Of a stretch of DNA of 39,092 bases, positions 1,708 to 27,384 are shown piece after piece. The notes beneath the pieces were generated by a model that was not told where the DNA came from, searched no databases, and saw only the letters and a list, made by a program, of their open reading frames with translations. This stretch comes from Candidatus Micrarchaeota archaeon (GTDB taxonomy: Archaea > Micrarchaeota > Micrarchaeia > Micrarchaeales > CABMGC01): assembly GCA_021791075.1 (NCBI GenBank), contig JAJYXH010000075.1, forward strand, positions 1 through 39,092, read 5' to 3'. A program made the position numbers and the translations under genes. How positions within the stretch are numbered: position 1 is the first letter of the stretch; the number at the start of each line of letters is the position of its first letter.

Positions 1708-1782
1708 AGCCCCGAGAGGGATTCGAACCCTCGACTTCTAGTTTACGAAACTAGCGCTCTAACCGGGCTGAGCTACCGGGGC
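1708..1782 (-). tRNA. tRNA-Thr (anticodon CGU)
   Basis: The reverse complement folds by hand into a 75-nt cloverleaf. Acceptor GCCCCGG/TCGGGGC, D stem GCTC/GAGC, anticodon stem CTAGT/ACTAG with loop TTCGTAA, T arm GAGGG-TTCGAAT-CCCTC. No intron and no encoded CCA. Confidence 0.92.
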
Positions 1783-1887: not shown

Positions 1888-4800
1888 ATGGTTAGGAACG
1901 CTTATTTCGCACAGATGCCTGGGAATCCGGGAGAGCAACCAGGAGCTCCAGGCGCTCCAGGCGCAATGCCCGGCCCGTCACAGCCTCCTTCTCGCCAGTT
2001 CCCGCAGCAGCAAGGCCCGATCCCAATAAAGGAGGGAGGCTCCGAGAAGCCCGACGAACTCGTCGAAGAGGTTAACAGGAAGGCCCACCAGAAGAAGATC
2101 GAGACCAAGCTTTTGTCGTATGCCGTAATCGCAATAATCATAGTCGCAGCCGGAGCCTACCTCATACCCCCTCTCCTAAAGCCATCGCCGGTCACCACAT
2201 CAACGACCACCGTTGCCCCGCAGATATTCAAGATATCATCCTGCACTGTCATCACCAAGAGCGGCACCTACTACATCACGGGCAACATCGACACGGCGAT
2301 CCAGAGCGGCTCGTGCATAGATATAATGAGTCCGAATGTCAAGCTTATAGGCAACGGGAACGGCATCCTCGGAAGCGGCCCGTTCGTGATAACGCCGCCT
2401 TTCTCCTACGGGATAAGGATTGACGACGCGAACAACGTCTCTCTCCAGGGGGTGAGCGTCTCAAGATTCTCGTACGATGTCTACCTTAACAGGTCATCGC
2501 AGTCTTCAATACTCAACAGCAGCATAAGGAACGGGACCGTCTCTGGAGTCTACCTAAATTCATCGGTGGGCGACACGCTTGCCAATGACAGCATCTCAGG
2601 GATATCGGGCCCGGCGGGGGCAATATCGCTTCAGGGCGGAGGAAGCTCAACCGTCACCAATGCGGTGATCCAGGGCAATGCATACTACGGTGTTGTCATA
2701 GCCTCAACGGGGAACAGGTTCTCGAAGCTCACCTTCCTAAACAACCCCGTCGACCTGATATGCTCGGGAATCGCAAGCTTCAGCTCGGAGAACAACTTCA
2801 CCGGCTCCACCTGCAGCGTAAACAAGTACTGCGAGTTCGCATACTGCTCAAAGGTCAACCTTCCGGCAAACATAAGCTCTATAACGCTCACAAGGCAGAT
2901 CACAGGATGCGGAGGCATAAGCTCCCCTGGCATCTACCAGGTCCAGACCAACCTCAACCTCTCATCCTACGCCAACGTCTCGGCATCCCCTTCTGTTGCA
3001 TGCATAACCATAACAGCTTCAAACGTAAGGCTGAACTGCAACAACAACGCGATACTCCACTCGGGCTACGGCGTCTCGATACCCTCTCTGGGAACCAGCC
3101 TCTACAACATCTCGATATCCAACTGCACGTTCGCCAACTACACCCACGCCATAAACGTCGGCCAGGTATTCGGATTCAACATAACAAACGTCCGTGCCTC
3201 GGGCGGCGGTGCGGCCATATACCTCCAGAACGGCACGCAGGGAACGGTCTCAAATTCCGTGCTCTCGAGGAACACGTACGGAATATACATCAACGGCACT
3301 TCAACCGGCATAACATTCAGCAACGTGACAGCTCAGGGCAACATCTACGGAGTCTACGCTGCCGCTGGCCAGGCCAACATATATACGCAGAGCAAGTTCG
3401 TCAACAACAGCAAGGAGGACCTGTACTGCACCGCGTCGCAGTACAACTCGCAGAGCAACATATTCGTCAACAACGAGTGCGGCACAACGGACTGCAACTG
3501 GGGAACAACATGCAAGACCCGCACCCTTCCTCCAATAAGCGTCTATCCGCTGAGCGGCTGCTCCACCATAGACACGCCGGGCAACTACTCTCTGAATGCC
3601 GACATAGACACGCAGGGCAACTGCTTCGCCATCAAGGCGAGCAACGTCAACCTCGCCTGCAACGGACATTACATAACGGGAGGTTTCGCAGGCAACGCGG
3701 TCTACGGGTCCGGGGTAAACAACATAACGTTCAACAATTGCAAGATCCAGAACTTCAACACCGCACTTAACTTCAGCAACTCCAACCATCTGAGCTTCAG
3801 TAACATCACAATAAACCAGTCCGGAACTTCAGTATCCATTACAAACAGCATATTCGACAGTATAGTAAAGGTCTCGTCAATACTCGGCGCCCACGGATTT
3901 GTGTTCAAGTACGTAAACGATTCCACTCTTACTAATGACTCGGCGATCTCGGGAAGGCAGAGCGCATCAGGATATCTGCTGAACTACTCATACAATAACC
4001 TAATTGCCTACGACGTCGCATCCTCAAACAATAATTACGGGTTCGCGTTCCTAAACTCAAGGAACAACCAGGTCTCCAACAACACCGCGCAGGGCAACCT
4101 GAAGAGCGACTACTACTGCTCAGCTAACTCCGGAGGACTCTACGCGCAGCAGGGTGGCATAAACAACGGGGTCAGCAAGCAGAACTGCATCTGGCTCGTC
4201 GAGGTGCAGCCCATACCCCAGCAGAACCTCTGCCAGTCTATAAGCAGCTCGGACATAATAACGCTTACCCAGGACATGGTATATCCATATGGCCACGCAT
4301 GCTACACGGTCTACAATACGAATTCCTCTAGCGGCAACGACACCGTGATAAACTGCATGGGACACACCATCTACGCCACGAGAGGCGGAACTTTCGTTGA
4401 CGACATCAACTCCAGCAACGTCCACGTCTCGAACTGCTACCTAAAGTACTTCACCAAGCCGATAATAGTCCAGGGCCCTAACGCGCAGATATACAACAAC
4501 ACTATCGGATCGTCGAACGCATCCATAAGCCTGATCAACGCGTTCAATCCAGTCGTGCGGACCAACAACATAACGAACGCCTCATACGGCATCTTCGTCC
4601 AGTCTGCCGACGACGGCCAGATAAAGAACAACATCCTGACCAATGCGAACATCAGCATCTCGGTGATCGGGTCTGCGAGCCTGCAGGTGCTTAACAATAC
4701 GGTGACCGGCGGATCGCTGGGTCTCTTCATGGAAAAATCGGATGAGATAGTCGTAGGATCAAACCATCTAACCCCTCCAACATCATCTGGAATAGTGTGC

Positions 4801-4911
4801 TCAACAGGATCCAAGAACACAAGCTCCTCGAATGTGGACTTCGGTGACAACGTCTGCTCCGGCAACCAGAACTGCAACTGGATGACCTCGTCGCCTCTGT
4901 GCAAGGTCTGA
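1888..4911 (+). CDS. Membrane-anchored, Cys-rich right-handed beta-helix (PbH1/NosD-like) surface protein with four tandem modules
   Basis: 1007 aa with an ATG start. It has a Pro/Gly/Gln-rich N-terminus, one TM helix (aa ~75-95), and a Thr-rich linker. Four ~220-aa modules follow, each opening with C-x(6-9)-G-x-Y... SNV-x-L-x-C-N-G and full of short N/G/S/T-rich beta-helix turns. I count at least 35 N-x-S/T sequons by eye. Confidence 0.8.
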   Translation: MVRNAYFAQMPGNPGEQPGAPGAPGAMPGPSQPPSRQFPQQQGPIPIKEGGSEKPDELVEEVNRKAHQKKIETKLLSYAVIAIIIVAAGAYLIPPLLKPSPVTTSTTTVAPQIFKISSCTVITKSGTYYITGNIDTAIQSGSCIDIMSPNVKLIGNGNGILGSGPFVITPPFSYGIRIDDANNVSLQGVSVSRFSYDVYLNRSSQSSILNSSIRNGTVSGVYLNSSVGDTLANDSISGISGPAGAISLQGGGSSTVTNAVIQGNAYYGVVIASTGNRFSKLTFLNNPVDLICSGIASFSSENNFTGSTCSVNKYCEFAYCSKVNLPANISSITLTRQITGCGGISSPGIYQVQTNLNLSSYANVSASPSVACITITASNVRLNCNNNAILHSGYGVSIPSLGTSLYNISISNCTFANYTHAINVGQVFGFNITNVRASGGGAAIYLQNGTQGTVSNSVLSRNTYGIYINGTSTGITFSNVTAQGNIYGVYAAAGQANIYTQSKFVNNSKEDLYCTASQYNSQSNIFVNNECGTTDCNWGTTCKTRTLPPISVYPLSGCSTIDTPGNYSLNADIDTQGNCFAIKASNVNLACNGHYITGGFAGNAVYGSGVNNITFNNCKIQNFNTALNFSNSNHLSFSNITINQSGTSVSITNSIFDSIVKVSSILGAHGFVFKYVNDSTLTNDSAISGRQSASGYLLNYSYNNLIAYDVASSNNNYGFAFLNSRNNQVSNNTAQGNLKSDYYCSANSGGLYAQQGGINNGVSKQNCIWLVEVQPIPQQNLCQSISSSDIITLTQDMVYPYGHACYTVYNTNSSSGNDTVINCMGHTIYATRGGTFVDDINSSNVHVSNCYLKYFTKPIIVQGPNAQIYNNTIGSSNASISLINAFNPVVRTNNITNASYGIFVQSADDGQIKNNILTNANISISVIGSASLQVLNNTVTGGSLGLFMEKSDEIVVGSNHLTPPTSSGIVCSTGSKNTSSSNVDFGDNVCSGNQNCNWMTSSPLCKV
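4607..4911 (+). repeat. Direct repeat copy A (last 305 nt of the beta-helix gene)
   Basis: Hand alignment to 7214-7518 (offset 2607) shows only 4 substitutions before the last 5 nt. Confidence 0.95.
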
Positions 4912-4938
4912 CTCGCCCTCTGCATCTGCACCACAAGA

Positions 4939-5451
4939 TTATTTGGGCTTATTGACGTAGTTCCTGTAGTAGGAATAGAGTGCTATGGTCTTGAGGTCTA
5001 TTATCTCGTTTTTCCTGATCATCGAGTCGAACTTTCTCATACTGACCCATCTCGAACTTATTATCTCGGTAGGATCAAGTTTCTTCCTGCCCTTTCTGAC
5101 TCCCTCAACAAGATAGAAATGGAACATGCTCTTTATCCTTCCAGGAGCCTCGTAGGCCTTGAACATCTTCCTGATCCTGACAGGCGCATATCCGGTCTCC
5201 TCTTCGAGCTCCCTTCTTGCTGCTGCATCCGGCCTCTCCCCATCATCGACAACGCCTGCGGGAAGTTCGTATATGTGCTCCTTTAACGCATGCCTGTACT
5301 GTTTCTCCAACAGTATTCTGCCCTTGTCAATGACCAGGGTAACTACGACATCCGGTCCAACTATCCTGAGGTACTCCTCCTTCCTGCCGTTGACTGTAAA
5401 GGGGGTCAGTTCCACTCTAAATCCGTACTTGTTGAAAAGTGTCTTTATCAT
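4939..5451 (-). CDS. Nudix hydrolase (ADP-ribose pyrophosphatase-like)
   Basis: 170 aa with an ATG start. The Nudix box [23 protein letters not shown] matches Gx5Ex7REUxEExGU. Confidence 0.9.
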
Positions 5452-5500
5452 AGACGCATTATGGGGCGATAACGTACTTATATTATATGATCGGACTGGC

Positions 5501-6109
5501 TTATTTATAAAGAGAAACGAATCTCGTAATTATCGAGTTGAACTCGTCCGGCCGGTCGATGTAGGGTCTGTGGCCCGCCCCCTCTATTATCCTGGTCTCG
5601 CCGATTCTCCTGAAACGCAGCTCGTCGCCATGCACATCCCTTATGACGTCGTCCTCCGATCCCCAGATTGCGATGACCCTGGTCTTTATCGAGTCGAGCC
5701 TGACCGCATCAAGATCAACAGGCGCAACGGCTATCACTCCCTTCAGGAGCCTGCCGTGCTTCTCCGCGAATTTGAGGGCCAGATATCCACTTCCGCTTGT
5801 CCCCAGCAGGAAGAGCTCCTTCTGCCGCGCCTTCTCCCTTATGAATCCCAGCAGCGCATCGAAGATGTCCGTTTCGGCCACATTCCTGCCGCTCTCCGTC
5901 ACGCTTCTGCTCTTGGGGAACCCGGGAACGTCCATCGCGTATACGTTGATGCTGGCTTCGTTCAGCTCCGCGATCGTCTTCGACTCTATCCATATGTCCG
6001 AGTCCCAGTTGTAGCCGTGCATGAGTATTACGGCCTTGTTGCCTCCGGCAGGAGCTTCCAGGTAGAAGAGCCTGCAGCCATTTAGGTCGATATTTTCTTT
6101 GCGTATCAC
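5501..6109 (-). CDS. alpha/beta-fold hydrolase
   Basis: 202 aa. The start at 6109 is GTG and no in-frame ATG is nearby. It has an HG oxyanion motif (ILMHGY), a nucleophile elbow GTSGSG, and a late GAGH. Confidence 0.8.
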
Positions 6110-6209
6110 TTATATCCCGCATTGCATGACGTATGGGCAAGCTGCTGCCCGTATCCTTACAATATCATCAATACTTGCCTGATTTATATATGGACATGCA
6201 ATAATCCTT

Positions 6210-6549
6210 ATGGATAAGAGATCCCCGTCATAATAAACACCGATCCGGGGCATGACGACGCAGCAGCTATAATGCTGGCCGTGAAGTCGGGCATGCTGGA
6301 CGTGAAGGCTGTTACCACGTCTGCCGGAAATTCAACCGTTGCCAACACGACCAGGAATGCAAGGTACATAATGCGCATTCTCGGGCGCGAGGACATACCC
6401 GTCTACTCTGGGGCATCAAAGCCCCTGAAGCGCAGCCTGATACGCGCAAAGGTGCACGGACCAAGCGGGCTCGCGGGAATAGCTCCCAGGAACAAGGCGC
6501 TGCTCAATGGCGAGGCTGTCGATAGAATCATATCGATCGTAAGGAAGAA
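6210..6549 (+). pseudogene. Inosine-uridine-preferring nucleoside hydrolase remnant (frameshifted at the 5' end, truncated at the 3' end)
   Basis: ATG at 6210 reads MDKRSPS then stop. The IUNH signature VIINTDPGHDDAAAIMLA lies in another frame from 6227. Restoring one C in the run 6223-6226 would join the two frames. Family-like sequence stops near ...AVDRIISIVRKK (~6549), about 110 of an expected ~310 aa. Confidence 0.75.
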
Positions 6550-6969
6550 ATGTCAAGAACAAAAGGTCTCGAGCTATCAGCAGCAGTGGTAACAGAATCG
6601 GTTATAGGAAGAGTTTGTTTTAGAAATTTTGATAATAGCTACTCGCTTCAAAGTAAAACACTAGTAGAGAGATTAGGAGAGAAACCCTTACCCACGTCAA
6701 ACTATTATTAAGGCGCACAATGTTGCGAGTCACAAAGTTGCATCATTTCACCATATTTGTATCCATTCCGATTAAATATTTAAGCACTTTTTCCTCGAAT
6801 TATTTGCCAAATCATTCTTTGGTATCTTTTATGGTGCACAACACCCTGCAGCCTTCATTATATTCCATTTTAGCACTTATACTAACATTTTTCTTCCTTT
6901 TAAACCTTTCCTGTCGAATAAAACACCGGAATACAATCTGGTAAAACGGACATAAAAGGCTTTGTTGGC
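6550..6969. other. A+T-rich non-coding island of unknown origin
   Basis: Composition shifts abruptly to visibly A+T-rich sequence. Neither strand has a convincing ORF. It is bounded by two truncated gene fragments. Confidence 0.6.
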
Positions 6970-7218
6970 CTAATCCTTCGCCTTTGCCTTGATCGCCGAG
7001 ATCTCGTCCAGCAGGTCCCCCGACTCGTTGTCGAGAAGGTCGGTGAACTTGTACATTAGGGCCCTCTCGTTCTCGTCGTTCATGAAGGTGTACAGCGTCT
7101 CGTTCTCCTTCACTTGTCTGCCGAAAGCGATATCCTCTATCGAGATCGCAACGCTCTTGCCGACCTTGGCCTCCTTCAGGCTTAGCGCATTGTCCTGCAT
7201 CTCCTTGACCCTCCCGAC
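6970..7218 (-). pseudogene. 3' fragment (last 82 codons plus stop) of a diverged aIF5B/infB gene
   Basis: It translates to VGRVKEMQDNALSLKEAK...ISAIKAKAKD. By hand alignment, 59 of 76 residues after the Met match the C-terminus of the resident infB (10543-10798). It has no 5' part. Confidence 0.88.
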
Positions 7219-7518
7219 GACGGCCAGATAAAGAACAACATCCTGACCAATGCGAACATCAGCATCTCGGTGATCGGGTCTGCGAGCCTGCAGGTGCTTA
7301 ACAATACGGTGACCGGCGGATCGCTGGGTCTCTTCATGGAAAAATCGGATGAGATAGTCGTAGGATCAAACCATCTAACCCCTCCAACATCATCGGGAAT
7401 AGTGTGCCCAACAGGATCCAAGAACACAAGCTCCTCGAATGTGGACTCCGGTGACAACGTCTGCTCCGGCAACCAGAACTGCAACTGGATGACCTCGTCG
7501 CCCCTGTGCAAGGCTTAG
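7214..7518 (+). pseudogene. 3' fragment of the beta-helix surface-protein gene (direct repeat copy B)
   Basis: Near-identical to 4607-4911. It lacks everything upstream, and similarity ends at the stop codon. Confidence 0.92.
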
Positions 7519-7661
7519 ATCTGGGCCATCAGCGGAGCTATGACATATACTACGAGGAAGGTTACCGGTACAGATAGCACGAATGAGAGCAGCACCTGGT
7601 TTACAGTATGCCGCCTCAGCCGCACCCTTGCTATGCCCACTATGGCAGCGAGCAGCAGCAT
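7515..7661 (-). CDS. Possible 48-aa two-helix membrane peptide
   Basis: ATG to TAA ORF below the track cutoff: MLLLAAIVGIARVRLRRHTVNQVLLSFVLSVPVTFLVVYVIAPLMAQI. The only support is an open frame and hydrophobicity. Confidence 0.2.
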   Translation of the reverse strand: MLLLAAIVGIARVRLRRHTVNQVLLSFVLSVPVTFLVVYVIAPLMAQI

Positions 7662-7763
7662 GCCTGCCAAGCTTCCTGCCAGGCCTCACGAAGAAGTAGT
7701 GACAGCCATGGCTGCCTCCTCTCCTTATTCTATTTCCATCCATCCTCCCACCGATTAACAGGA

Positions 7764-7889
7764 TCAGTCAGCGTATACGACTCTCCACGAGTTCTCTCCG
7801 TCAGGCACAAGCTTCACGGGCCTCCGGTCATCCTCCGTAGGCACGTACTCCTTTATCCGGGATCCAAAGACTCTGTTCCATATTGTCAT
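7764..7889 (-). CDS. Possible 41-aa soluble peptide
   Basis: ATG to TGA ORF: MTIWNRVFGSRIKEYVPTEDDRRPVKLVPDGENSWRVVYAD, preceded by GGAGAG. No family recognised. Confidence 0.2.
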   Translation of the reverse strand: MTIWNRVFGSRIKEYVPTEDDRRPVKLVPDGENSWRVVYAD

Positions 7890-8120
7890 TCTCTCCACTC
7901 ATTAAGCGTTAACTGGGGTTGCGGGCCGGGCTGGAATCGGTGCTGCTAGTTGGGTTGTCTGGGGGTTCAGTCTAACCACAGAATTAGATACAGTATCAAT
8001 CTGGTTTCCCGATCCCATGCATCCCGACCCGTGACAATATTATGGGTCTGGTCATTTATATATTCTACCATATTTGAGATATTATTTACACGGTTTTAAG
8101 GTTCTGTAAACGCCTTCGCC

Positions 8121-9386
8121 TCAATCGGCATATCTCCGCGGCTTTACGGTCCTGGCATACTCCGAAAAAGAGCGTTCCAGGCCGTCGGTGGAGCCAATGC
8201 CTATTACCACCGTCTCGCCCGGCTTTGCGTCCATGATCTCGTTTACAAAGTCGAGCTCCTTCTTTCTGACCTCAGAGTGCGCCTCAGTGTTGGTGAAGGC
8301 CACACATCCGTATTTGTCGAAAAGACAGCTATGCTCCCTGGTAAAACCCTCATGACCGTTAATCTTTATGGCAAACGCCTTATTGTCTCCTTCAATGAGC
8401 CGCGATATCACATCCCCCCTGTTATTCACAAAGGCGCTTGTTACGTCGAAGATCCTCAGTTCGTCGGCAAGGCTATGCCTCTTCTTAATGTGTTCCGGTG
8501 CCTTTGACAGCCTCTGCTGCATAAATATGCCTGCGCTTAGAAGCACTGCTGCGGCAATATAATAGAGGTGCACCGGGGTGTCAAGAATCAAGGCAGAAAA
8601 GAGAATGGTAAGAAATGGCACTGCAAGTATGCTGTTGCCAATAAATAGGGGGCCAAAGGTCTTCAGGGCGTAGTAGTAGAGCGAGCTGCCGATCCCGTAG
8701 GCAGCTATGCCCAGGAAGAGTACGGCAATGATCACGCTCTCGTTAAGTGGCACCAACACGGAAGTTCCTGTGGCGAGGGCGATAGCCAAGATAAAAGCGA
8801 GCGATGCCATATTGAATATCGCTATCGCACCGAATACGTCGACATTGTACTTCTTCATTGCAAGGTTGGGATAGACCACGCAGAGCGCCGACCCAAGCAG
8901 TATGGCCACGTATGGCACCGACGAGGCATTTATGCTGAGCAAAGTGCCTCCCGTAGCAATGACATAGATGCCGGCAAACCCTATAATCGTGGCAAGAAGC
9001 TGGACCTTGGTTACCTTCTGCCTGAGCACTAGCGGCACCAGCACGGCAGACATTATCACCCACACCCTGAACACCGTAGCGGCAACGATCGGGTTTGTGC
9101 CGAGGGTGCCTACCCCGAGCATAAGCTGCGATATGACATTGTTTAGGAGCCCAGCAACGACTATTATCAGAAGAAATCTGCCGGATCTCAGTATCTTCAT
9201 AAGGCCGGCCATCCTGTCCACTGCATAGCTCACCACCAGTGACGTTATGGTTCCGATAAGGAAGGCGTAGAACAGCTGCGGCACCACGCCTATCCCACTT
9301 CCGCCTATGCTTAGCACGACGGGCAGCAGTGCCAGCTCCGTAAGGGCAAGCCCAAGTGCTATGAGCCCTCCGTATAATATCTTCAT
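8121..9386 (-). CDS. DMT/EamA-type permease fused to a ~125-aa soluble C-terminal domain
   Basis: 421 aa with an ATG start. About 10 TM helices in two halves, typical of EamA. From ~aa 300 (KKRHSLADELRIFDV...) the protein is hydrophilic. Confidence 0.75.
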   Translation of the reverse strand: MKILYGGLIALGLALTELALLPVVLSIGGSGIGVVPQLFYAFLIGTITSLVVSYAVDRMAGLMKILRSGRFLLIIVVAGLLNNVISQLMLGVGTLGTNPIVAATVFRVWVIMSAVLVPLVLRQKVTKVQLLATIIGFAGIYVIATGGTLLSINASSVPYVAILLGSALCVVYPNLAMKKYNVDVFGAIAIFNMASLAFILAIALATGTSVLVPLNESVIIAVLFLGIAAYGIGSSLYYYALKTFGPLFIGNSILAVPFLTILFSALILDTPVHLYYIAAAVLLSAGIFMQQRLSKAPEHIKKRHSLADELRIFDVTSAFVNNRGDVISRLIEGDNKAFAIKINGHEGFTREHSCLFDKYGCVAFTNTEAHSEVRKKELDFVNEIMDAKPGETVVIGIGSTDGLERSFSEYARTVKPRRYAD

Positions 9387-9504
9387 TTACCCCAGATGGG
9401 ACTTGGCTTTTAAGGCTTATAAACAAGAACTTTCTGTAAATCTTATTTACATATTCTTCAGATTTTGTAATAGGCCTTTTAAGGTTTTGGTCAGATATGT
9501 CATC

Positions 9505-10533
9505 ATGTATTTCACGAAGCAGGAGAAGGTTATCCTAAGGGAGCTGAGCTTCGACTCACGGGCTACGGTGACGCGCCTTGCGGAGGCAGCAGGATGCTCA
9601 AGACCAACTGCCATGAAGATCATCCAGAGGCTCTCCGAGAGGACTGATATGAGATTCACTCTGGAGTTGAACATGGAGAGGCTGGGCCTTGGCGAGAGGT
9701 ACCTTGTTGCCATCAGGTTCAGAAAGAAGCCTGGCGAGGAAGCCCTCAAGCAGTTCTTCAGGGAAGACAGGCATGCGCAGGACGTCTATCTTGTTAAAGG
9801 CGGATTCGATCTGCTCGTATTTGCGGTCTCCGGAACAGCAGTCGACTATATACGGTGGGAGACGCGCATCTCGGAAACGCTCTCGCAATACGGGCCAACG
9901 ATAATGCCCTCAAGGTATGTGCTCTCGCATTTCGGCTATCTGCCCATGGCAGGGTCCTTCACCGACTTTATCGGTGAAGACAGTAGACTTGATCAGACTG
10001 ACAGGCAGATGCTCGGGTTCCTGAACAGCAACTCACGGACGGGTTACAGGGAGTTGGGGTCGAAGCTCGGAATCACCGAAGCCACAGCCAGGTACCGGCT
10101 CTACAGCATGGTCAAGAGCGGGATCATAACGCGTTTTACTGTGGCTGTACAGAGTCCGGGAGAGGGATACAGCAGCATGGTGTACTTCATAAACTACACG
10201 TTCACCAAGACGACATCTTCTGTCGCATTCGCAAATGCCAGGAGCTGCTACTTTAGCGACGACAAGGAGATGCCGATGTTCAACACTTTTCAGGCGATCT
10301 TCCCGATAAGCGGGAGCTTCAGATCGTTTGGGATGGTGCTGTGCGAGAGCAGGAAGGAGGCCATGGAGAAGGCAGTGCGGAGGCACAGAAGGATATTCAG
10401 GAACGAGGGCATAAGGATGCTTTACGGAGAGCTGGTGAGGCCGATAAAGGGGCTCTTGCCGTTCAGGAGCCTTGACATAAAGTCAGACTACAGGACCATA
10501 AACTGGCACGACCCTGACTATCCCGGGGCATAG
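9505..10533 (+). CDS. Tandem-fused Lrp/AsnC-like transcriptional regulator (two HTH-plus-effector modules)
   Basis: ATG at 9505; the track ORF starts upstream inside the DMT gene. Module 1 HTH: QEKVILRELSFDSRATVTRLAEAAGCSRPTAMKIIQRL. Module 2 HTH: DRQMLGFLNSNSRTGYRELGSKLGITEATARYRLYSMVKSGII. Confidence 0.72.
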   Translation: MYFTKQEKVILRELSFDSRATVTRLAEAAGCSRPTAMKIIQRLSERTDMRFTLELNMERLGLGERYLVAIRFRKKPGEEALKQFFREDRHAQDVYLVKGGFDLLVFAVSGTAVDYIRWETRISETLSQYGPTIMPSRYVLSHFGYLPMAGSFTDFIGEDSRLDQTDRQMLGFLNSNSRTGYRELGSKLGITEATARYRLYSMVKSGIITRFTVAVQSPGEGYSSMVYFINYTFTKTTSSVAFANARSCYFSDDKEMPMFNTFQAIFPISGSFRSFGMVLCESRKEAMEKAVRRHRRIFRNEGIRMLYGELVRPIKGLLPFRSLDIKSDYRTINWHDPDYPGA

Positions 10534-10542
10534 GCCCTAAGT

Positions 10543-13500
10543 TCATCCCTTCGCTCTTGCCTTGATATTTGATATCTCGTCCAGCAAGTCCCTCGACTCG
10601 TTGTCGAGCATGTCCGGGAACTTGTATCTCAATGAGCGTTCGTTCTCGTCGTTCATGAAGGTGTACAGCGTCTCGTTCTCCCTTACCTGCCTGCCGAAGG
10701 TCACGTCCTCCATCGAGATGGCGATGCTCTCCCCAGCCTTCGACTCCTTGAGGCTTATCGCGTTGTCCTGCATCTCCTTGACCCTCCCGACTATCTCGCC
10801 GTGCTGGTTCATCAGCTGCCACGAGGGCCTCAGCCTTCCCCTCTCTACCTTCACCCCGAAGACCGCGGGATGTGAGACCCTGAAACAGCTGTTGGGGAGC
10901 ACCGTCAGCTTGCCCGGGAAGACCAGTGACTTCTCTATCGCCTCCTTGTCAATCTTCCTCTCCGCATCGGCCCACTCCTTGTAATCGTCAATTATCTTGT
11001 AGATTATGTTGCTGTTTATTACCCTAATCCCCGTTGCCTCACTCTCGGCCTTCGCCTCGTCGTCAAGCGGTACGTTGAACGCGAGCACGATGCCCCCGTA
11101 GGGGTCGCTCGCCTTCATAGTGTATGCGTCGAGCACGTCCCTCTTTGTCACCCTCCCTATCTCCTTCTTGCTTATGCTTATCTTCTCTGCTCCGAGGAGC
11201 CTCGATAAGGCCTCTATGCTCCCCATCGTGTCGGCCTTCAGTATGACCCCCGTCTTCTCCACGTCGAATATCTCGCTTATCTCCGACTTTATCTCCTGCT
11301 CGTAGTTCGGTATCTCGGTGGAGAGGACCAGCGACCCCGGAAGCGCTCCGTCGAGGTTGGACGCGCTTATCTTTATGCCTGAGGCGGCGCTCACGCTGTC
11401 TATGTAGTAGAACTTGCTCGACGACTCGCGCAGCTCCTGGAGCTCCTTGGGCTTGAGCAGCGCCTTTATCTTCGCCGTGTCTATCCCAGCCGATGTGGCG
11501 AACGCAATGGTGTCATTTACCTTTAGCGTCCCGTTGTAGAGTATCACGTCTATCGTTGACCCGAGCCCCCTGTCCTCCTTCTTCTCTATTATGTTGCCCC
11601 TCCCAGGCCCCTTTACCTCTATCTCAAGGCGCTGCTCCAGGAACCTCTGCGCCAGCCCGGTCGCGTACATGAGCAGCTCCCCGAGCCCCTCCCCTGTCTT
11701 GGCGCTCACCGGAACTATTATTACCTCCTTCTTGAAGTCCTTGACCCTGTCGAACCTCTCGCTGTTGAACCCGAGCTCGCTCAGCTTGCCCACGAGCCCG
11801 TAGATCTTGGCCTCGAGGTCGTTGACCACGTTGCTCCTCTGTTTCGAGATCGTCTCCGTGAATGAGTTAGTAGACTGGATCATCCATCCGGTTATCGCGT
11901 CTATCTTGTTCGCGGCGACTATGAAAGGGGTCCTGTACTCCTTGAGTATCTCTATCGCCTCGTACGTCTGGGGCTCGAAGCTCTTCGTGACGTCTACAAC
12001 GAGTATTGCAAGGTCCGCAACCGACCCTCCCCTCTTCCTCAGGTTGGTGAAGGCCTCGTGACCCGGGGTGTCTATGAAGAGGAGCCCGGGTATGGTGATC
12101 TTGATCCCGAACTTCTCAAGAAGCGGTCCCACTATCTTCTTGATCACGTCAAGGGGGACCTCGCTCGCTCCTATGTGCTGCGTAATGCCCCCTGCCTCCC
12201 TAACAGTTATCGTCGTGCTTCGGATCTTGTCGAGAAGTGAGGTATTGTGTACAATCAGGTTATTTGCCATAAAGTTATGGGTACCATCTACGGTAAAGTC
12301 ATACACTGAGAAGTCCCCCTTCAGGGATTCGGTACCGGTAACTGCAACTGTCTTATATGAAGAGAGCACCGAAGCGACTGGCAAGGCCGCTGTCTCATCG
12401 CTAAAGCCCAGTATTGTTCTGGCGGCGTATCTTGTCAAGTTATTCTTAGACTCATAATAGCCCAGGTCAAATCCGCGTCTTCCGTGTATGTTATACTGAC
12501 CCCTAAGTTCCTTCACGAACCTTCCGCTAAGCGGAGTCATGTCGAATATCCTGCTTGAAACTGCCTTTCCAATATTTCTATTAAGCTTCTCTGCCTTACT
12601 TGGCTCTGTAAAGCCAATGTTTTCTGCAAAGGCAGCAAGGTTTTCCAATCCACTTATGCTGATCTCCAGGGCAGTCCGTTTATATCTCTTTACAAAGTAT
12701 GACAGGCACCCGAATCTGTGTAGCAATGCGGGCAATTGCCTCATCAACACCTGACTCTCGCAGCTAACCCCTATGCTTCCGGTATAATTCTCTGACTCTG
12801 CGAACCCTTCAGCATCGAAGAAACCCTGAACAAACTTTCCGGCAAGGCTGTTGTCCGACATGCTTACTATATCGGGCAGTGCAAGTATCCTTGTCTTGTC
12901 CTTTTCCGGATAGTCAAACACAGCCACTAGAAACTTAGAGAAAGTCCTGCCCCCTTTGTGGTCGACAATATAAGATGTTCTGCGCCAGGCAGATGTTATG
13001 CCTATTCCAAAAGATTTTGTTAGGCACTTCCCAAACTTATCGATCAAGACTTGCGATGTATTGCTCAGTTTCGCCGAAGACCCGATCCCGTCACCGAACA
13101 ACAGCCCGACGGCATAATAAAGTGCCTCAAACTCCTCGCGCTCATGAGGGATCTTCAACCAGTATGATGTGTGACCTGCCCTTCTCTTTTTGGTGCTTGA
13201 CTTTATCGCGTCTATATTATCATAAATCTCCTCTTTGGGATACCCCATGAGAAAAAGAAGGCGCATCAGCACCGATGGCCGGTAGAATCCGCGCCTTAGA
13301 TGATTGTCAAGCGTGGCGTCACCTATCTCACCAGCGAGCTTGTACACCCTGCCACTGCAATAGCGCACGATCTTTTCGTTGAGGCCCTTCGATATCTTAA
13401 CTAGGAAGGTGTCTGGAAGCTTTTCTATTATGCGCTCCTTTATTCCGGTCAGATTCAGTGCTGAGGTATCTGTCTTCAAAGGCACCAATAGCAGATCCCC

Positions 13501-13878
13501 AGCGCGTAGCTCCTCTGCCTTCTTATACGCCGCCGTTCCATCCTCACAAAAGACTAGGAACTTATGCTCCGGAGTGGTCTTTATCTCATAACCTGCCTTT
13601 GTGGTAACGCGGATAAGTCGGTCTGCCTTAAGCTTCAGTACATGACTGACATCCCTGGGAGAGGCTTTACCCCACTCGTCTACCGAGACGAGCGCCATTC
13701 CAGAAGCCTTGTATGCTATGCCATCTGGCTGACTTATGGGGGATCCGTCATTAAAGGTATTGAATGCCGATTCTGCAGACATGATCCTTCCATCGCCTAT
13801 CTCAAGTAGGGTATCTCCGCTAACACATTTGCCATGGTCCACGTGGCCCATCACGCAAATTATCGGCTGACGTATCAT
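10543..13878 (-). CDS. infB: Translation initiation factor aIF5B (IF-2), interrupted by an intein
   Basis: P-loop GHVDHGK, then the intein, then TSLLDKIR. Also DTPGHEAF and NKID GTPase motifs, and a long aIF5B-type C-terminal region. ATG at 13878; the track start at 13887 is GTG. Confidence 0.95.
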   Translation of the reverse strand: MIRQPIICVMGHVDHGKCVSGDTLLEIGDGRIMSAESAFNTFNDGSPISQPDGIAYKASGMALVSVDEWGKASPRDVSHVLKLKADRLIRVTTKAGYEIKTTPEHKFLVFCEDGTAAYKKAEELRAGDLLLVPLKTDTSALNLTGIKERIIEKLPDTFLVKISKGLNEKIVRYCSGRVYKLAGEIGDATLDNHLRRGFYRPSVLMRLLFLMGYPKEEIYDNIDAIKSSTKKRRAGHTSYWLKIPHEREEFEALYYAVGLLFGDGIGSSAKLSNTSQVLIDKFGKCLTKSFGIGITSAWRRTSYIVDHKGGRTFSKFLVAVFDYPEKDKTRILALPDIVSMSDNSLAGKFVQGFFDAEGFAESENYTGSIGVSCESQVLMRQLPALLHRFGCLSYFVKRYKRTALEISISGLENLAAFAENIGFTEPSKAEKLNRNIGKAVSSRIFDMTPLSGRFVKELRGQYNIHGRRGFDLGYYESKNNLTRYAARTILGFSDETAALPVASVLSSYKTVAVTGTESLKGDFSVYDFTVDGTHNFMANNLIVHNTSLLDKIRSTTITVREAGGITQHIGASEVPLDVIKKIVGPLLEKFGIKITIPGLLFIDTPGHEAFTNLRKRGGSVADLAILVVDVTKSFEPQTYEAIEILKEYRTPFIVAANKIDAITGWMIQSTNSFTETISKQRSNVVNDLEAKIYGLVGKLSELGFNSERFDRVKDFKKEVIIVPVSAKTGEGLGELLMYATGLAQRFLEQRLEIEVKGPGRGNIIEKKEDRGLGSTIDVILYNGTLKVNDTIAFATSAGIDTAKIKALLKPKELQELRESSSKFYYIDSVSAASGIKISASNLDGALPGSLVLSTEIPNYEQEIKSEISEIFDVEKTGVILKADTMGSIEALSRLLGAEKISISKKEIGRVTKRDVLDAYTMKASDPYGGIVLAFNVPLDDEAKAESEATGIRVINSNIIYKIIDDYKEWADAERKIDKEAIEKSLVFPGKLTVLPNSCFRVSHPAVFGVKVERGRLRPSWQLMNQHGEIVGRVKEMQDNAISLKESKAGESIAISMEDVTFGRQVRENETLYTFMNDENERSLRYKFPDMLDNESRDLLDEISNIKARAKG
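12244..13827 (-). mobile_element. 528-aa intein with a LAGLIDADG homing-endonuclease domain, inserted in the aIF5B P-loop
   Basis: Starts CVSGDTLL directly after GHVDHGK. Block B TTPEHKF. LAGLIDADG motifs LLFGDGIGS and FVQGFFDAEGFA. Ends ...THNFMANNLIVHN followed by +1 Thr (TSLLD). Removing it gives a ~585-aa aIF5B. It looks more A+T-rich than the exteins. Confidence 0.92.
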
Positions 13879-14047
13879 CTTCTCCACTTCAGTATGAGTA
13901 CAATCTCAATTGCATACAAAATATATAAATAGACGGTAAAGTAGAGCTTATTGCCTGTGGTGAATTGATGATAAGCGTCAGAGCACGGTTAACATTATAT
14001 AAATCCTACGGCAGCATATAGTAAATTGATTTGATAGTGGCGAGTGT

Positions 14048-14593
14048 ATGGGCCAAGAACTGATATTCATAAAATACGACGGAATAGAGCGAAAGCTGGT
14101 AGGTACTGTGATAAGCAGGTTTGAGAATGCAGGATTCAAGATCGAGAAGATCAAGAAGGGCAGGATCTCAAAAGAGCTCTCAGAGCTTCTCTACCAGGAC
14201 TCCGAGACGCAGCTCAACGGCATGGGCGCAAAGACACTCAAGGCGATGACGGACAAGGGGGAGAAGGACAAGATAATGGAGATATTCAAGACCGAGGTGC
14301 CGTTCGAGATAGGCAAGCTGCTGAACACGTGGAACAGGCTCTATGCGACTTCATACGACGTGATCGCGCTCGTAATCTCAAAGGACGGCGATGCCGTTAC
14401 CGAGGCAAGGGCGATAGTCGGAAAGACCGATCCGTCGATCTCGCCCAAGGGCACGATACGTGGGGACTTTGCCGCGGACTCGATATACAAGGCGAACCTT
14501 GAGAAGAGGGCATGCCAGAACATAATACATGCATCCGACGTCGACACGGCGGAGATGGACGTGAAGAACTTCGAGGAGCACTTCTTCAGGTAA
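14048..14593 (+). CDS. ndk: Nucleoside diphosphate kinase, long divergent form
   Basis: 181 aa. NDK landmarks: IFIKYDGIERKLVGTVISRFENAGFKI, GTIRGDF, and NIIHASD (catalytic His). It has a ~30-aa insertion relative to canonical ~150-aa NDKs. Confidence 0.75.
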   Translation: MGQELIFIKYDGIERKLVGTVISRFENAGFKIEKIKKGRISKELSELLYQDSETQLNGMGAKTLKAMTDKGEKDKIMEIFKTEVPFEIGKLLNTWNRLYATSYDVIALVISKDGDAVTEARAIVGKTDPSISPKGTIRGDFAADSIYKANLEKRACQNIIHASDVDTAEMDVKNFEEHFFR

Positions 14594-14819
14594 GCCAGGT
14601 CTGCTTATGGCAAAGGAAAGGGAGATCATAATACTCGATGTGGACAAGGGAAAGTTGAAGGGGTCACAGGGAGCTGGGAGCCAGGCACACGGGAACCTAC
14701 CACTTCAAGAGGATTGAGTTCGTCTTTGGTGGGGACATAAAGGTCAAGCACTTCTGGGCAGGATAAGGACTGATGGAAAGGAGATCACGATCTATTGTAA
14801 AGGCAAAGCCATACTGCTC

Positions 14820-15125
14820 TCAGACCTGCATGCTCATCCTGACCTCCTCCGTTATCATCTCCGGGGTCCACGCGGGCTCCCATACCAGGTCTATGTTTAC
14901 CTGCCCCGCATCCTGGATATGCTCCAGCCTTAGCTGCACGTCGGCAAGGATTATGCTTGTGACAGGGCACATCGGGCTCGTCATGGTGAGCCTTATGCTG
15001 ATGTTGTTCTCCCTGTCTATGGTTATTCCGTGGATCAGGCCAAGGTCGACTATGTTTATCCCTATCTCAGGGTCGACGCAGCCTTTGAGCGCAGTTATTA
15101 CCTGATCGATCGTTATCTTCTGCAT
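14820..15125 (-). CDS. DUF59/MIP18-family Fe-S cluster assembly protein (SufT/PaaD-like)
   Basis: 101 aa: ...VITALKGCVDPEIGINIVDLGLI...LTMTSPMCP... This is the characteristic DPE-hxxxhV-LGLh and T-x-x-x-CP pattern. Confidence 0.85.
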   Translation of the reverse strand: MQKITIDQVITALKGCVDPEIGINIVDLGLIHGITIDRENNISIRLTMTSPMCPVTSIILADVQLRLEHIQDAGQVNIDLVWEPAWTPEMITEEVRMSMQV

Positions 15126-25232: not shown

Positions 25233-25450
25233 ATGTGTCAGTCACACGGGTCCTCGTTGTCCGAGGTAAGATCAGTGCATGCCAGAACTACCGTCAACAT
25301 CGCGGTGCTCTCCCAGTCACCGCTTATCCTCACCATGGCATACGCGCATCCAGTAACTCCGCTATCGATTGTCAATTCCTCCATTCCGGTGCCTGTCGGC
25401 ATAGTCAGCTACGGTCTATACAACGTCTCCAATGTCATCTGGACCGCATA
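25233..25450 (+). pseudogene. N-terminal remnant of a thermopsin paralogue
   Basis: ...AVLSQSPLILTMAYAHPVTPLSIVNSSIPVPVGIVSYGLYNVSNV parallels VLSLLSPIIRVSSAQLVTPLSIFNSSIPMPVGIASYGLYNVSNA of the intact gene at 26125. A 28-nt stretch is identical (agctacggtctatacaacgtctccaatg). Similarity is lost after that. Confidence 0.65.
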
Positions 25451-25554
25451 CAGGAAAGGCAGACACTCTGCCATATCTGATCCTGCAATGCGGCGCAGGA
25501 TCGTACGCTCAAGAGAACGATAGTATTACATATAATACCAATGTACTCTATATT

Positions 25555-26076
25555 ATGTTACTGGACGAGTGGCGAAAGTTTAAGGGATTCGCAGTACTGG
25601 AGTACTTCCTCTGGAACGGCGAGAAGATCCACATCAAAGGTCTGGCAAGACTGTTGGAGATAAGCCCGAATACCGCCGCCGACGTATCTTCGACTCTACG
25701 AGAAGGAGGGATCCTGAACCGGGAAGAGGCGGGGAATATTGCGCTTTACGGCTCATCCGGCAATAGCACTGTTGCAGAACTTAAGAGGATGTACATATTG
25801 CTGAGAATATCCAAGTACGCCAAGTCGTTTGTGGAAGAGAACAAGAATATAAGTTCGTTGATACTCTATGGCGGCACGGCGAGGGGGGAATATGACAGGA
25901 ACAGCGATGTCGATCTGCTCGCAATATCCCAGAGCAAGAGTCCGGAGCCGAAGGGCATACGCGCAATGGAGGCCGGATTGGGCAGGGAGGTAAAGATCGA
26001 GGTGCTGGGTCTGGGCGAGCTGAGGAAGCTGGCTGACAAAAAGGACACACTTTATGTAAAACGATCTCTCAATTAA
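25555..26076 (+). CDS. Winged-helix plus minimal nucleotidyltransferase (MNT, pol-beta superfamily) protein
   Basis: ATG at 25555 sits behind an A+T-rich TATA-like stretch. The NTase signature is LYGGTARGEYDRNSDVDLLAI (G-x-x-x-R-G...D-x-D). The N-terminus is wHTH-like (IKGLARLLEISPNTAADVSSTLREGGIL). Confidence 0.8.
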   Translation: MLLDEWRKFKGFAVLEYFLWNGEKIHIKGLARLLEISPNTAADVSSTLREGGILNREEAGNIALYGSSGNSTVAELKRMYILLRISKYAKSFVEENKNISSLILYGGTARGEYDRNSDVDLLAISQSKSPEPKGIRAMEAGLGREVKIEVLGLGELRKLADKKDTLYVKRSLN

Positions 26077-26124
26077 AACTCACGTTACGTGCAAATGCTG
26101 CGGTCGAGTATAAAAGGCAATAAA

Positions 26125-27384
26125 ATGGATAGCAAGATAAAACAGGCACTATGTTTGATGTTCGTTCTCTCCCTCTTATCGCCAATAATACGTGTTTCAT
26201 CTGCCCAGCTTGTCACCCCCCTCTCCATCTTCAACTCCTCCATCCCTATGCCTGTGGGGATAGCCAGCTACGGTCTATACAACGTCTCCAATGCCACCGG
26301 GCCGTACAAGATCGAGACGAACGAGATCATCGGCTTCGCGAGGATCGACTCCATAAACGCGTACAACTCCAGTCCTCCGGCCAATACATCTGCGTACGGG
26401 GCAACGGTCCAGCTCAACGTGGTCATGAACGTCACCTCAGTCAGCGGGAACAGGTACTCGTACTGGATCCAGGACGTGATGGACGTGAACACCAGCAACA
26501 GGACATACGTCATAGGCGACAACGTCTGGAACTTCACCGGCGTGATATCGAACGTCACCAACGAGACCCTCAGCGGCGAGGGAAATGTCACCCCTCCATC
26601 GTCAAATGACCCGTTCTCGCTGAACTTCACCGCCGGATTCTACTCGGCCGGGTTCAACACCACATACAACCTGAACCCACCCACGTACTTCCTGCCTGTC
26701 ATAGAGGTCAGCGATCCCGGTCAGCATCCGCTTGCCAGGATAGGGTACATAGACAACAACAGGTACGTATTCTACGATAACGTCACGTTCAACATAACTG
26801 CCGCAAGCGCATACCTCCTCGTCACTCCATACTACCTGACCCCGGTACGGAACGCATCGTCAAATGCGACCGGCAATTACTACGACGCGGAGATGGTCCT
26901 GGGCGGGGAGGGCAGCGGTGCGATAGCGAGTTTCAACAATACCAATGCGACGCTGTGGATCGGGTATAACAACGGCAGCGCCATAGTTCCGTTCCCCTCG
27001 GTGGGCACGTTCGGCGTTGACACGGAAGAGGCTGCAGTGAACCTCACCACGTCTCAATCAGGAGGTAACGTCGCGGTAAAGAACGGTCCGCTTAACTACG
27101 GCCAGACGCTTTACCTGTCCGGCGTGCCGGCATTCCTGCAGCAGGCTACAACTCCGGCACAACCAACTACGACCGTTGCAACGAACTATACGACAACGCA
27201 AGCGACTACAATCCTGCCATCGGCATCGCAGAACCAGTCCAATGCCTCGACGTCAGTCGGGTCTCCAACTCCGCCTTCCGGAACAGGTGGTTCAGATTCG
27301 GCGATCGTCGCTGCCGTAGCAGTCATGGGGGTAGCAATCATCTACCTGATAATAAGGTCGATGCGGAGATCCGCAAAGGGCTGA
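26125..27384 (+). CDS. Thermopsin-family (peptidase A5) acid protease with a Thr/Pro-rich stalk and C-terminal TM anchor
   Basis: It matches my memory of Sulfolobus thermopsin: PVGIASYGLYN, YSYWIQDV, IGDNVWNFTG, YYDAEMVLGGEGSG, TFGVDTEEAA. The signal peptide starts at MDSKIKQALCLMFVL; the track start at 26089 is GTG. Confidence 0.9.
   Translation: MDSKIKQALCLMFVLSLLSPIIRVSSAQLVTPLSIFNSSIPMPVGIASYGLYNVSNATGPYKIETNEIIGFARIDSINAYNSSPPANTSAYGATVQLNVVMNVTSVSGNRYSYWIQDVMDVNTSNRTYVIGDNVWNFTGVISNVTNETLSGEGNVTPPSSNDPFSLNFTAGFYSAGFNTTYNLNPPTYFLPVIEVSDPGQHPLARIGYIDNNRYVFYDNVTFNITAASAYLLVTPYYLTPVRNASSNATGNYYDAEMVLGGEGSGAIASFNNTNATLWIGYNNGSAIVPFPSVGTFGVDTEEAAVNLTTSQSGGNVAVKNGPLNYGQTLYLSGVPAFLQQATTPAQPTTTVATNYTTTQATTILPSASQNQSNASTSVGSPTPPSGTGGSDSAIVAAVAVMGVAIIYLIIRSMRRSAKG

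Follow-up and report, generated by a model that had tools for sequence, protein, structure and literature searches.

Among the described routes by which heterologous DNA is added beside homologous sequence, homology-facilitated illegitimate recombination (HFIR) comes closest to the locus reported here. HFIR joins DNA at microhomologies of 3-10 bp beside a homologous anchor and, as summarized in PMC6382021, is known from Acinetobacter baylyi, Streptococcus pneumoniae and Pseudomonas stutzeri (de Vries & Wackernagel 2002; Prudhomme et al. 2002; Meier & Wackernagel 2003; all via PMC6382021). Products with partial similarity come from microhomology-mediated tandem duplication or template switching, from intein homing with co-conversion, and from islands or integrative elements with borders at the 3' ends of genes. 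Here we describe a 549-bp segment (positions 6970-7518) in a 39,092-nt stretch of DNA from a Candidatus Micrarchaeota archaeon, referred to below as the window. The segment is a non-functional recombination scar and not a gene. We put at roughly 0.6 the probability that it arose by one-sided homologous recombination combined with a microhomology-mediated illegitimate join, in the manner of HFIR, between two haplotypes of the same locus.

On the plus strand the region consists of a beta-helix gene ending in a segment A, an insert X, a dead infB tail B', a dead beta-helix tail A', an insert Y, the infB 3' end B, and the remainder of infB. The resident beta-helix gene (1888..4911, plus strand) is intact and encodes a 1007-aa surface protein of the NosD/Beta_helix type according to the ORF list, Pfam and the repeat comparison. 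Its last 305 nt (A, 4607-4911, plus strand) are the parent-type copy of 7214-7518. Insert X (4912..6969) extends from the beta-helix stop to the stop of the dead infB tail. Pfam, reading frames and base composition assign to it a NUDIX gene (4939-5451, minus strand), an alpha/beta hydrolase gene (5501-6109, minus strand), a truncated inosine-uridine nucleoside hydrolase gene of which a 5' fragment is left (6218-6592, plus strand), and a stretch of 34% GC (about 6600-6960). The nucleoside hydrolase fragment covers Pfam positions 16-110 of 297 and lacks a start codon. Given this truncated gene and the 34% GC stretch, X bears an older scar of its own. In a search for the origin of X through its hydrolase gene, the best homologue was 53% identical and located in an unrelated context, and none of the collections searched yielded a source of X.

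The scar itself consists of two dead gene ends. B' (6970..7218, minus strand) is the 3' end (82 codons and a TAG stop) of an aIF5B/infB allele that is diverged and cut halfway through domain IV, and A' (7214..7518, plus strand) is the 3' end (101 codons and a TAG stop) of a beta-helix gene. To its right, insert Y (7519..10542) is unrelated to X. It starts with the frameshifted, decayed remains of a PAP2 phosphatase gene (7515 to about 7750, minus strand) of which the stop overlaps the A' stop, followed by an EamA-family transporter gene (8121-9386, minus strand) and a tandem Lrp/AsnC-type regulator gene (about 9505-10533, plus strand), as assigned from Pfam and reading frames. In this pseudogene a 51-aa ORF aligns to positions 84-125 of the 130-position Pfam PAP2 profile but has altered residues at the catalytic sites, and an SGH motif lies upstream in a different frame; the JGI strain carries a 4-nt insertion at 7554 in this region. 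The resident aIF5B/infB gene (10543..13887, minus strand; Pfam) is intact and reaches 1114 aa because a LAGLIDADG intein (12244-13827, boundaries GHVDHGK/C...HN/T) occupies its P-loop. The P-loop of aIF5B/IF2 is a known intein insertion site. The last 82 codons of this gene (B, 10543-10791, minus strand) are the counterpart of B'.

Self-BLAST of the window returned exactly two repeats that touch the scar. Positions 6975-7218 match 10548-10791 with 82.0% identity over 244 nt without gaps (E 2e-66), and positions 7211-7513 match 4604-4906 with 98.35% identity over 303 nt (E 5e-151). In a base-by-base three-way alignment the chimera is infB-like as far as 7218 and beta-helix-like from 7214 onward, so the switch lies inside the pentanucleotide CCGAC (7214..7218) that is common to both parents. 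This agrees with the preliminary description, which had proposed a microhomology-mediated illegitimate join with the crossover in CCGAC. A microhomology of at least 5 nt is expected by chance in about 0.5% of random joins (P = 0.0046). In two contigs, the NCBI MAG contig L002 and the ENA contig L035, the resident copy of the motif at 4607-4611 reads CTGAC due to a synonymous C/T SNP at 4608. Had the event occurred in a CTGAC background, the perfect overlap at the joint would be 3 nt (GAC) rather than 5.

Both fragments keep open frames to their stops, and the homology between B and B' and that between A and A' each end at the stop codon. The same description had the fragments joined head-to-head in opposite orientation. 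Both are in fact on the same strand as their full-length copies; the repeats are direct, and the joint therefore has the polarity of a tandem duplication or a circle, without inversion. At the joint, the equivalent of 10791, where the segment 4607..10791 ends, is followed by the equivalent of 4607, where that segment starts. Such an end-to-start joint in direct orientation is what a simple tandem duplication gives, but the uniform divergence between copies that should go with it was not found: X and Y have no similarity, A and A' differ by 0-1.7%, and B and B' by 18%. The joint also resembles those of HFIR in that CCGAC falls in the 3-10 bp range and the joined ends derive from different genomes or alleles, as indicated by the 18% distance of B' and by SNPs in A' that recur in L035.

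The same locus was recovered from several sources by exact-protein look-ups. The junction lies within a JGI metagenome contig (L001), two NCBI MAG contigs (L002 and L003/L036), and two ENA contigs assembled with k=141 (L005, from 5 samples, and L006). L005 and L006 show 100% identity across 7214. The k=141 contigs are necessarily built from read-derived 141-mers. The JGI contig has SNPs of its own within the beta-helix fragment as compared to the window, and thus is an independent sample of the population. A metagenome assembly or amplification chimera was worth considering since the window is metagenome-derived, several strains share samples, and many contigs break beside the repeat at 7254. 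However, a 5-nt overlap is unable to join de Bruijn contigs, which excludes an assembly chimera, and the junction was not missing from independent data: it occurs inside k=141 contigs from several ENA samples, in a JGI contig whose SNP pattern differs, and in two NCBI MAGs. We consider an artefact of either kind extremely improbable.

The infB-like half of the scar was examined for its origin. As had been claimed, 6970-7218 is the final 82 codons of an infB gene: it is a gap-free copy of 10543-10791 with 82% nucleotide and 79% amino acid identity (65/82), and matches positions 44-86 of the 86-position Pfam profile GTP_EFTU_D4, which is half of aIF5B domain IV. The identity of 59/76 residues given previously holds for a 76-aa stretch, and the nucleotide identity estimated by eye as roughly 80% was measured as about 82%. 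A partial profile is not what a paralogue or a stand-alone domain IV protein would give. Upstream of B' only the antisense strand of the beta-helix tail is found and no infB sequence, and B' begins in mid-domain. The possibility that B' is a normal C-terminal aIF5B paralogue was rejected on these grounds.

The differences between B' and B are those of a protein-coding gene under constraint. The dN is 0.11 and the dS 0.80 (dN/dS about 0.15), the mismatches are distributed 14:7:27 over the three codon positions (p=0.0016), and a three-taxon decomposition gave a dN/dS of about 0.17 for the B' branch. B' thus diverged under purifying selection, from which it follows that it is the tail of another functional infB allele; the suggestion that a different lineage supplied the infB half was correct. 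B' is about as distant from the resident allele as is L009, a different species. In a phylogeny, B', the resident allele and L009 were grouped with 73% bootstrap support, but 82 codons do not fix the order within the trio. Among the contigs of species-representative genomes L009 was the closest, with 77% identity to B' and 84% to B. A full-length infB ending in B' was not found in genome contigs, metagenome contigs or the protein database. A protein search with the 82-aa B' sequence returned only itself and one match of 65%, the best match to the 216-aa chimeric C-terminus was 61%, and a scan of metagenome contigs for a B' donor gave 63% at most. A second infB fragment was not present at any of the relatives' loci that were examined.

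A second relic of this type was noticed further along the window. Some 28 codons of a thermopsin N-terminus (25353-25437) resemble 26212-26296 with 82% nucleotide identity and 3 amino acid changes in 27. The fragment sits directly upstream of a nucleotidyltransferase gene (25432-26076) and extends over its start; after that gene comes the intact thermopsin gene (26089-27384). The level of 82% is the same as for B' and B, which hints at repeated imports from a relative that is about 18% diverged.

The second half of the scar was described as the last ~100 codons of the beta-helix gene with ~98% identity, and we found 101 codons of a NosD/Beta_helix protein (Pfam) that are 98.35% identical to 4604-4906. 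Depending on the assembly, A and A' differ at 0-5 internal sites. A' ends in LCKA and a TAG stop, which is the ancestral ending also present in L009, while the resident gene ends in LCKV and TGA, with the final bases contributed by X. Furthermore, A' shares four SNPs with the intact beta-helix gene of L035, a contig that lacks the X–B' loop. In the JGI strain A' is identical to A at all four internal SNP sites and the two differ only in the last dozen bases. In L009 the last 56 amino acids of the beta-helix protein are just 79% identical, and in other relatives the whole protein is 37-46% identical. Judged from these comparisons, A' would differ far more if its source lineage were as remote as that of B'.

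The two halves had been thought to differ in age or origin. The difference in origin stands, as the infB half is a foreign allele. The difference in age does not, since A'-type SNPs occur in an intact gene in L035. We considered whether 98% and 82% could be the ages of two local duplications and rejected this reading, both for those SNPs and for the identity of A' and A at the internal sites in the JGI strain, together with the divergence of B' under purifying selection. The contrast reflects two haplotypes that have near-identical beta-helix genes and infB genes about 17-18% apart.

A scan of species-representative genomes with aligned infB tails showed that the close relatives are Candidatus Micrarchaeota (DPANN) MAGs only, of which L009 is the closest (infB 92% identical at the amino acid level). 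Nothing separates infB from the convergent beta-helix gene in L009, L011, L014 and L018 but a short gap at most, and in this lineage the tail-to-tail pairing is ancestral and conserved, so the fragments do not come from two unrelated genes as was originally supposed. The two stop codons overlap in CTAG in L009, and the gap is about 20-100 nt in L011, L014 and L018. Three other relatives (L010, L012 and L013) have 1.5-3.3 kb of unrelated genes between both tails, including a PIN-domain gene in L010. From these gene orders, the tail-to-tail point is an insertion hot spot for accessory genes. Removal of X from the window restores TGCAAGG followed directly by CCTAATCC, an abutment with overlapping stops like TGCAAGGCCTAGGAC in L009. 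A and B' were therefore once direct neighbors. With this L009-like abutment and the endings of A' and A, it follows that A–X–B' and A'–Y–B are two versions of the locus placed in series.

Two further contigs, L039 (NCBI MAG GCA_027364235.1) and L040 (ENA), have an infB without intein. Compared to the window they are essentially identical from 7254 to 11529, about 17% divergent at the nucleotide level from 11530 to 14821 (dN 0.045, dS 1.13), and identical again beyond 14821. The right edge of this haplotype block is the stop of the FeS_assembly_P gene (14820-15125, minus strand). The infB alleles with and without intein accordingly share an identical 3' part of 990 nt and have 5' parts about 17% apart, with a homologous crossover point at 11529/11530 within infB and near-identical sequence to the right of 14821 in both haplotypes. 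The NDK gene also differs by haplotype, with type W in the window and type V in L039/L040. NDK_V is 92% identical (amino acids) to the NDK of L009, and NDK_W is 38% identical to that of L009 and 77% to that of L011. This three-segment pattern means that two deep haplotypes coexist and recombine in one population.

The divergence of the L039/L040 infB (17%) matches that between B and B' (18%). For the 5' part of infB the tree pairs the allele of the window with L009 (87% bootstrap) and leaves the intein-less one outside. These distances would allow B' to be the lost tail of the intein-less allele type, and no more than that, since 82 codons cannot prove its placement.

A loop-free form of the locus was found in L035 (ENA), in which a full-length beta-helix gene is directly joined to Y and infB, without X–B'. 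This gene has the A'-type SNPs and the A' ending, and it combines T at 4608 with C at 4707, a combination that is found in neither copy of the loop-bearing L002. Its gene order and SNPs fit the predicted second parental haplotype, of the donor type. The contig could also result from mis-traversal at k=141 of the 181-nt exact repeat 7214-7394 = 4607-4787, and many k=141 contigs end at 7254, which equals 7395−141. Alternatively, it could represent a secondary loop-out deletion via recombination between A and A'. The same strain has an island at 7283-13409 of its contig, located to the left of tRNA-Thr(CGU) (window 1708-1782), beyond its 3' end, in place of the CLC channel gene. The island encodes a tyrosine integrase, an AAA_15/AAA_21 ATPase, an N6/N4 methyltransferase and a BglII-type endonuclease, and resembles an integrated element whose presence varies within the population.

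The favored exchange between haplotypes is the simplest history, needing one event, and would proceed as follows. Across the block from the beta-helix stop to the FeS-assembly gene stop, one haplotype would have had the order beta-helix–X–infB'(…B')–NDK and the other beta-helix–Y–infB(B, intein)–NDK, with beta-helix genes 98-100% identical. We infer that the X haplotype was the recipient and that a segment of the Y haplotype entered its chromosome. By chance this segment would have begun 305 nt before the beta-helix stop, and it would have spanned Y and infB. At its right end it would have been inserted by homologous recombination, either beyond 14821 or inside infB, as in the L039 lineage (11529/30). 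At its left end an illegitimate join at CCGAC would have linked it to the recipient infB', 82 codons before the stop of that gene. The recipient infB would thereby have been truncated and a complete infB imported, the recipient beta-helix gene would have stayed intact, and the two tails would be relics. Because the segment brings an entire infB and the recipient keeps its beta-helix gene, the event would be viable without loss of function. An unequal illegitimate crossover between two co-resident chromosomes would be equivalent and give the same product. The result resembles a partial tandem duplication since donor and recipient are versions of one locus. A recipient-type haplotype beta-helix–X–full-length infB(…B') was not found in genome contigs, metagenome contigs or the protein database. 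Experimental demonstrations of HFIR are known from naturally transformable bacteria only.

The polarity of the joint would be exactly as expected if a tandem duplication had come first, with slippage between CCGAC motifs about 550 bp apart giving A·B|A·B in situ, after which X and Y would have been inserted in the two copies and a diverged allele would have replaced the 3' part of the functional infB by homologous recombination, leaving B 18% different from B'. The ancestral segment would have been short (about 0.55 kb), allele replacement inside infB does occur in the population, the tail-to-tail point is an insertion hot spot, and L035 would then be a loop-out deletion. This route nevertheless requires two independent insertions at adjacent copies and a replacement that ends exactly at the infB stop. 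Inside B there is no trace of a crossover, as the mismatches to B' reach the stop codon, and the A'-type SNPs and the LCKA/TAG ending in the intact L035 gene are more simply explained by a parental haplotype. We regard the duplication route as unlikely. Slightly less likely still is a Campbell-type integration, in which a 2.6-kb circle [A–X–B'] closed at CCGAC in an X-haplotype cell would have been transferred and integrated by a single homologous crossover in the 300-nt beta-helix tail of a Y-haplotype chromosome. A and A' are indeed direct repeats of 300 nt, 98-100% identical, that flank X–B' in a unit of 2607 bp, and recombination between them would regenerate the loop-free form seen in L035. 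Against a circle stand the two rare steps that it needs, circle formation and then transfer, and the lack of a replication or mobilization function on it (Pfam). The product is on present data indistinguishable from that of the favored exchange between haplotypes.

A functional role for the scar is very improbable, whether as an expressed 76-aa mini-protein (6970-7200, with an ATG start) or as att remnants of an integrase element. B' is an intact ORF with an ATG that is identical in all assemblies, but it starts in the middle of the domain IV beta-barrel and its conservation is uninformative at a population diversity of 0.1%. An integrase island is present in strain L035, though at tRNA-Thr, 5 kb away. 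Pfam analysis of all ORFs and searches for RNAs and repeats revealed no integrase, transposase, tRNA, Rfam RNA or terminal repeats in X or Y, and the repeats at the scar are 244-300 nt of coding sequence ending at stop codons instead of short att cores. An integrative element was rejected for this reason: the only integrase is the one beside tRNA-Thr in strain L035, and the sole terminal repeats are the gene tails. The JGI gene calls in L001 include the 76-aa infB remnant (6970-7200, minus strand) and a 109-aa ORF antisense to the beta-helix tail (7182-7511, minus strand). Both are probably annotation artefacts, and the calling of the remnant as a gene is a warning for annotation pipelines.

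The intein suggests a further scenario, which we find about as doubtful as the circle, namely that the scar is a by-product of homing of the LAGLIDADG intein. The endonuclease of the intein-bearing infB would have cut an intein-less allele on a co-resident or recipient chromosome, with homologous repair on the upstream side. On the downstream side homeologous pairing would have failed at 17% divergence, and through the CCGAC microhomology the resected end would have become attached to the donor fragment at its far end. The essential gene would then have been replaced wholesale, with its old 3' tail left behind. A separate idea, that intein homing replaced B' by B, is weakened by the finding that the intein-less L039 also has a B-type 3' end. 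If the homing scenario is true, the locus would be a natural record of DNA exchange between lineages of DPANN archaea, and of intein homing as a driver of illegitimate recombination and island acquisition.

The scar is neutral. It reflects an ordinary, known kind of event and does not point to a new molecular system. Its value is that of a marker, precise to the base and supported by population data, for illegitimate recombination at a microhomology between two haplotypes of an uncultivated DPANN archaeon. The presence of the essential infB as two recombining alleles is useful for studies on gene flow, species boundaries and intein dynamics in DPANN.

Of the systems mentioned at the outset, islands and integrative elements bordering on gene 3' ends resemble the locus in having a dead 3' fragment beside accessory genes, an intact copy nearby, and homology that ends at the stop codon. 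The locus differs from them in that integrase, att core and tRNA target are missing, and in its long coding repeats, one of which is 18% diverged. Intein homing with co-conversion is similar in that intein-bearing and intein-less infB alleles coexist and about 0.7 kb beside the intein is allele-specific. At 7214, however, the scar is separated from the intein site by 5 kb, and any connection with homing is speculative. Microhomology-mediated tandem duplication and template switching (replication slippage, MMBIR/FoSTeS) share with the locus the polarity, the direct orientation and the microhomology of a few bases. Duplications of that type do not account for X and Y being different, or for B' being 18% from B with signs of purifying selection while A' is 0-1.7% from A. 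As in HFIR, the novel joint falls in a microhomology that is short and rich in G+C (5 nt, as against 3-10 bp in HFIR); heterologous DNA would likewise have been added beside sequence homologous between donor and recipient, and the recipient sequence truncated at the joint. The difference from HFIR is that the event is here inferred from its product alone, in an uncultivated DPANN archaeon, and the same applies to the anchor, the direction and the uptake route.
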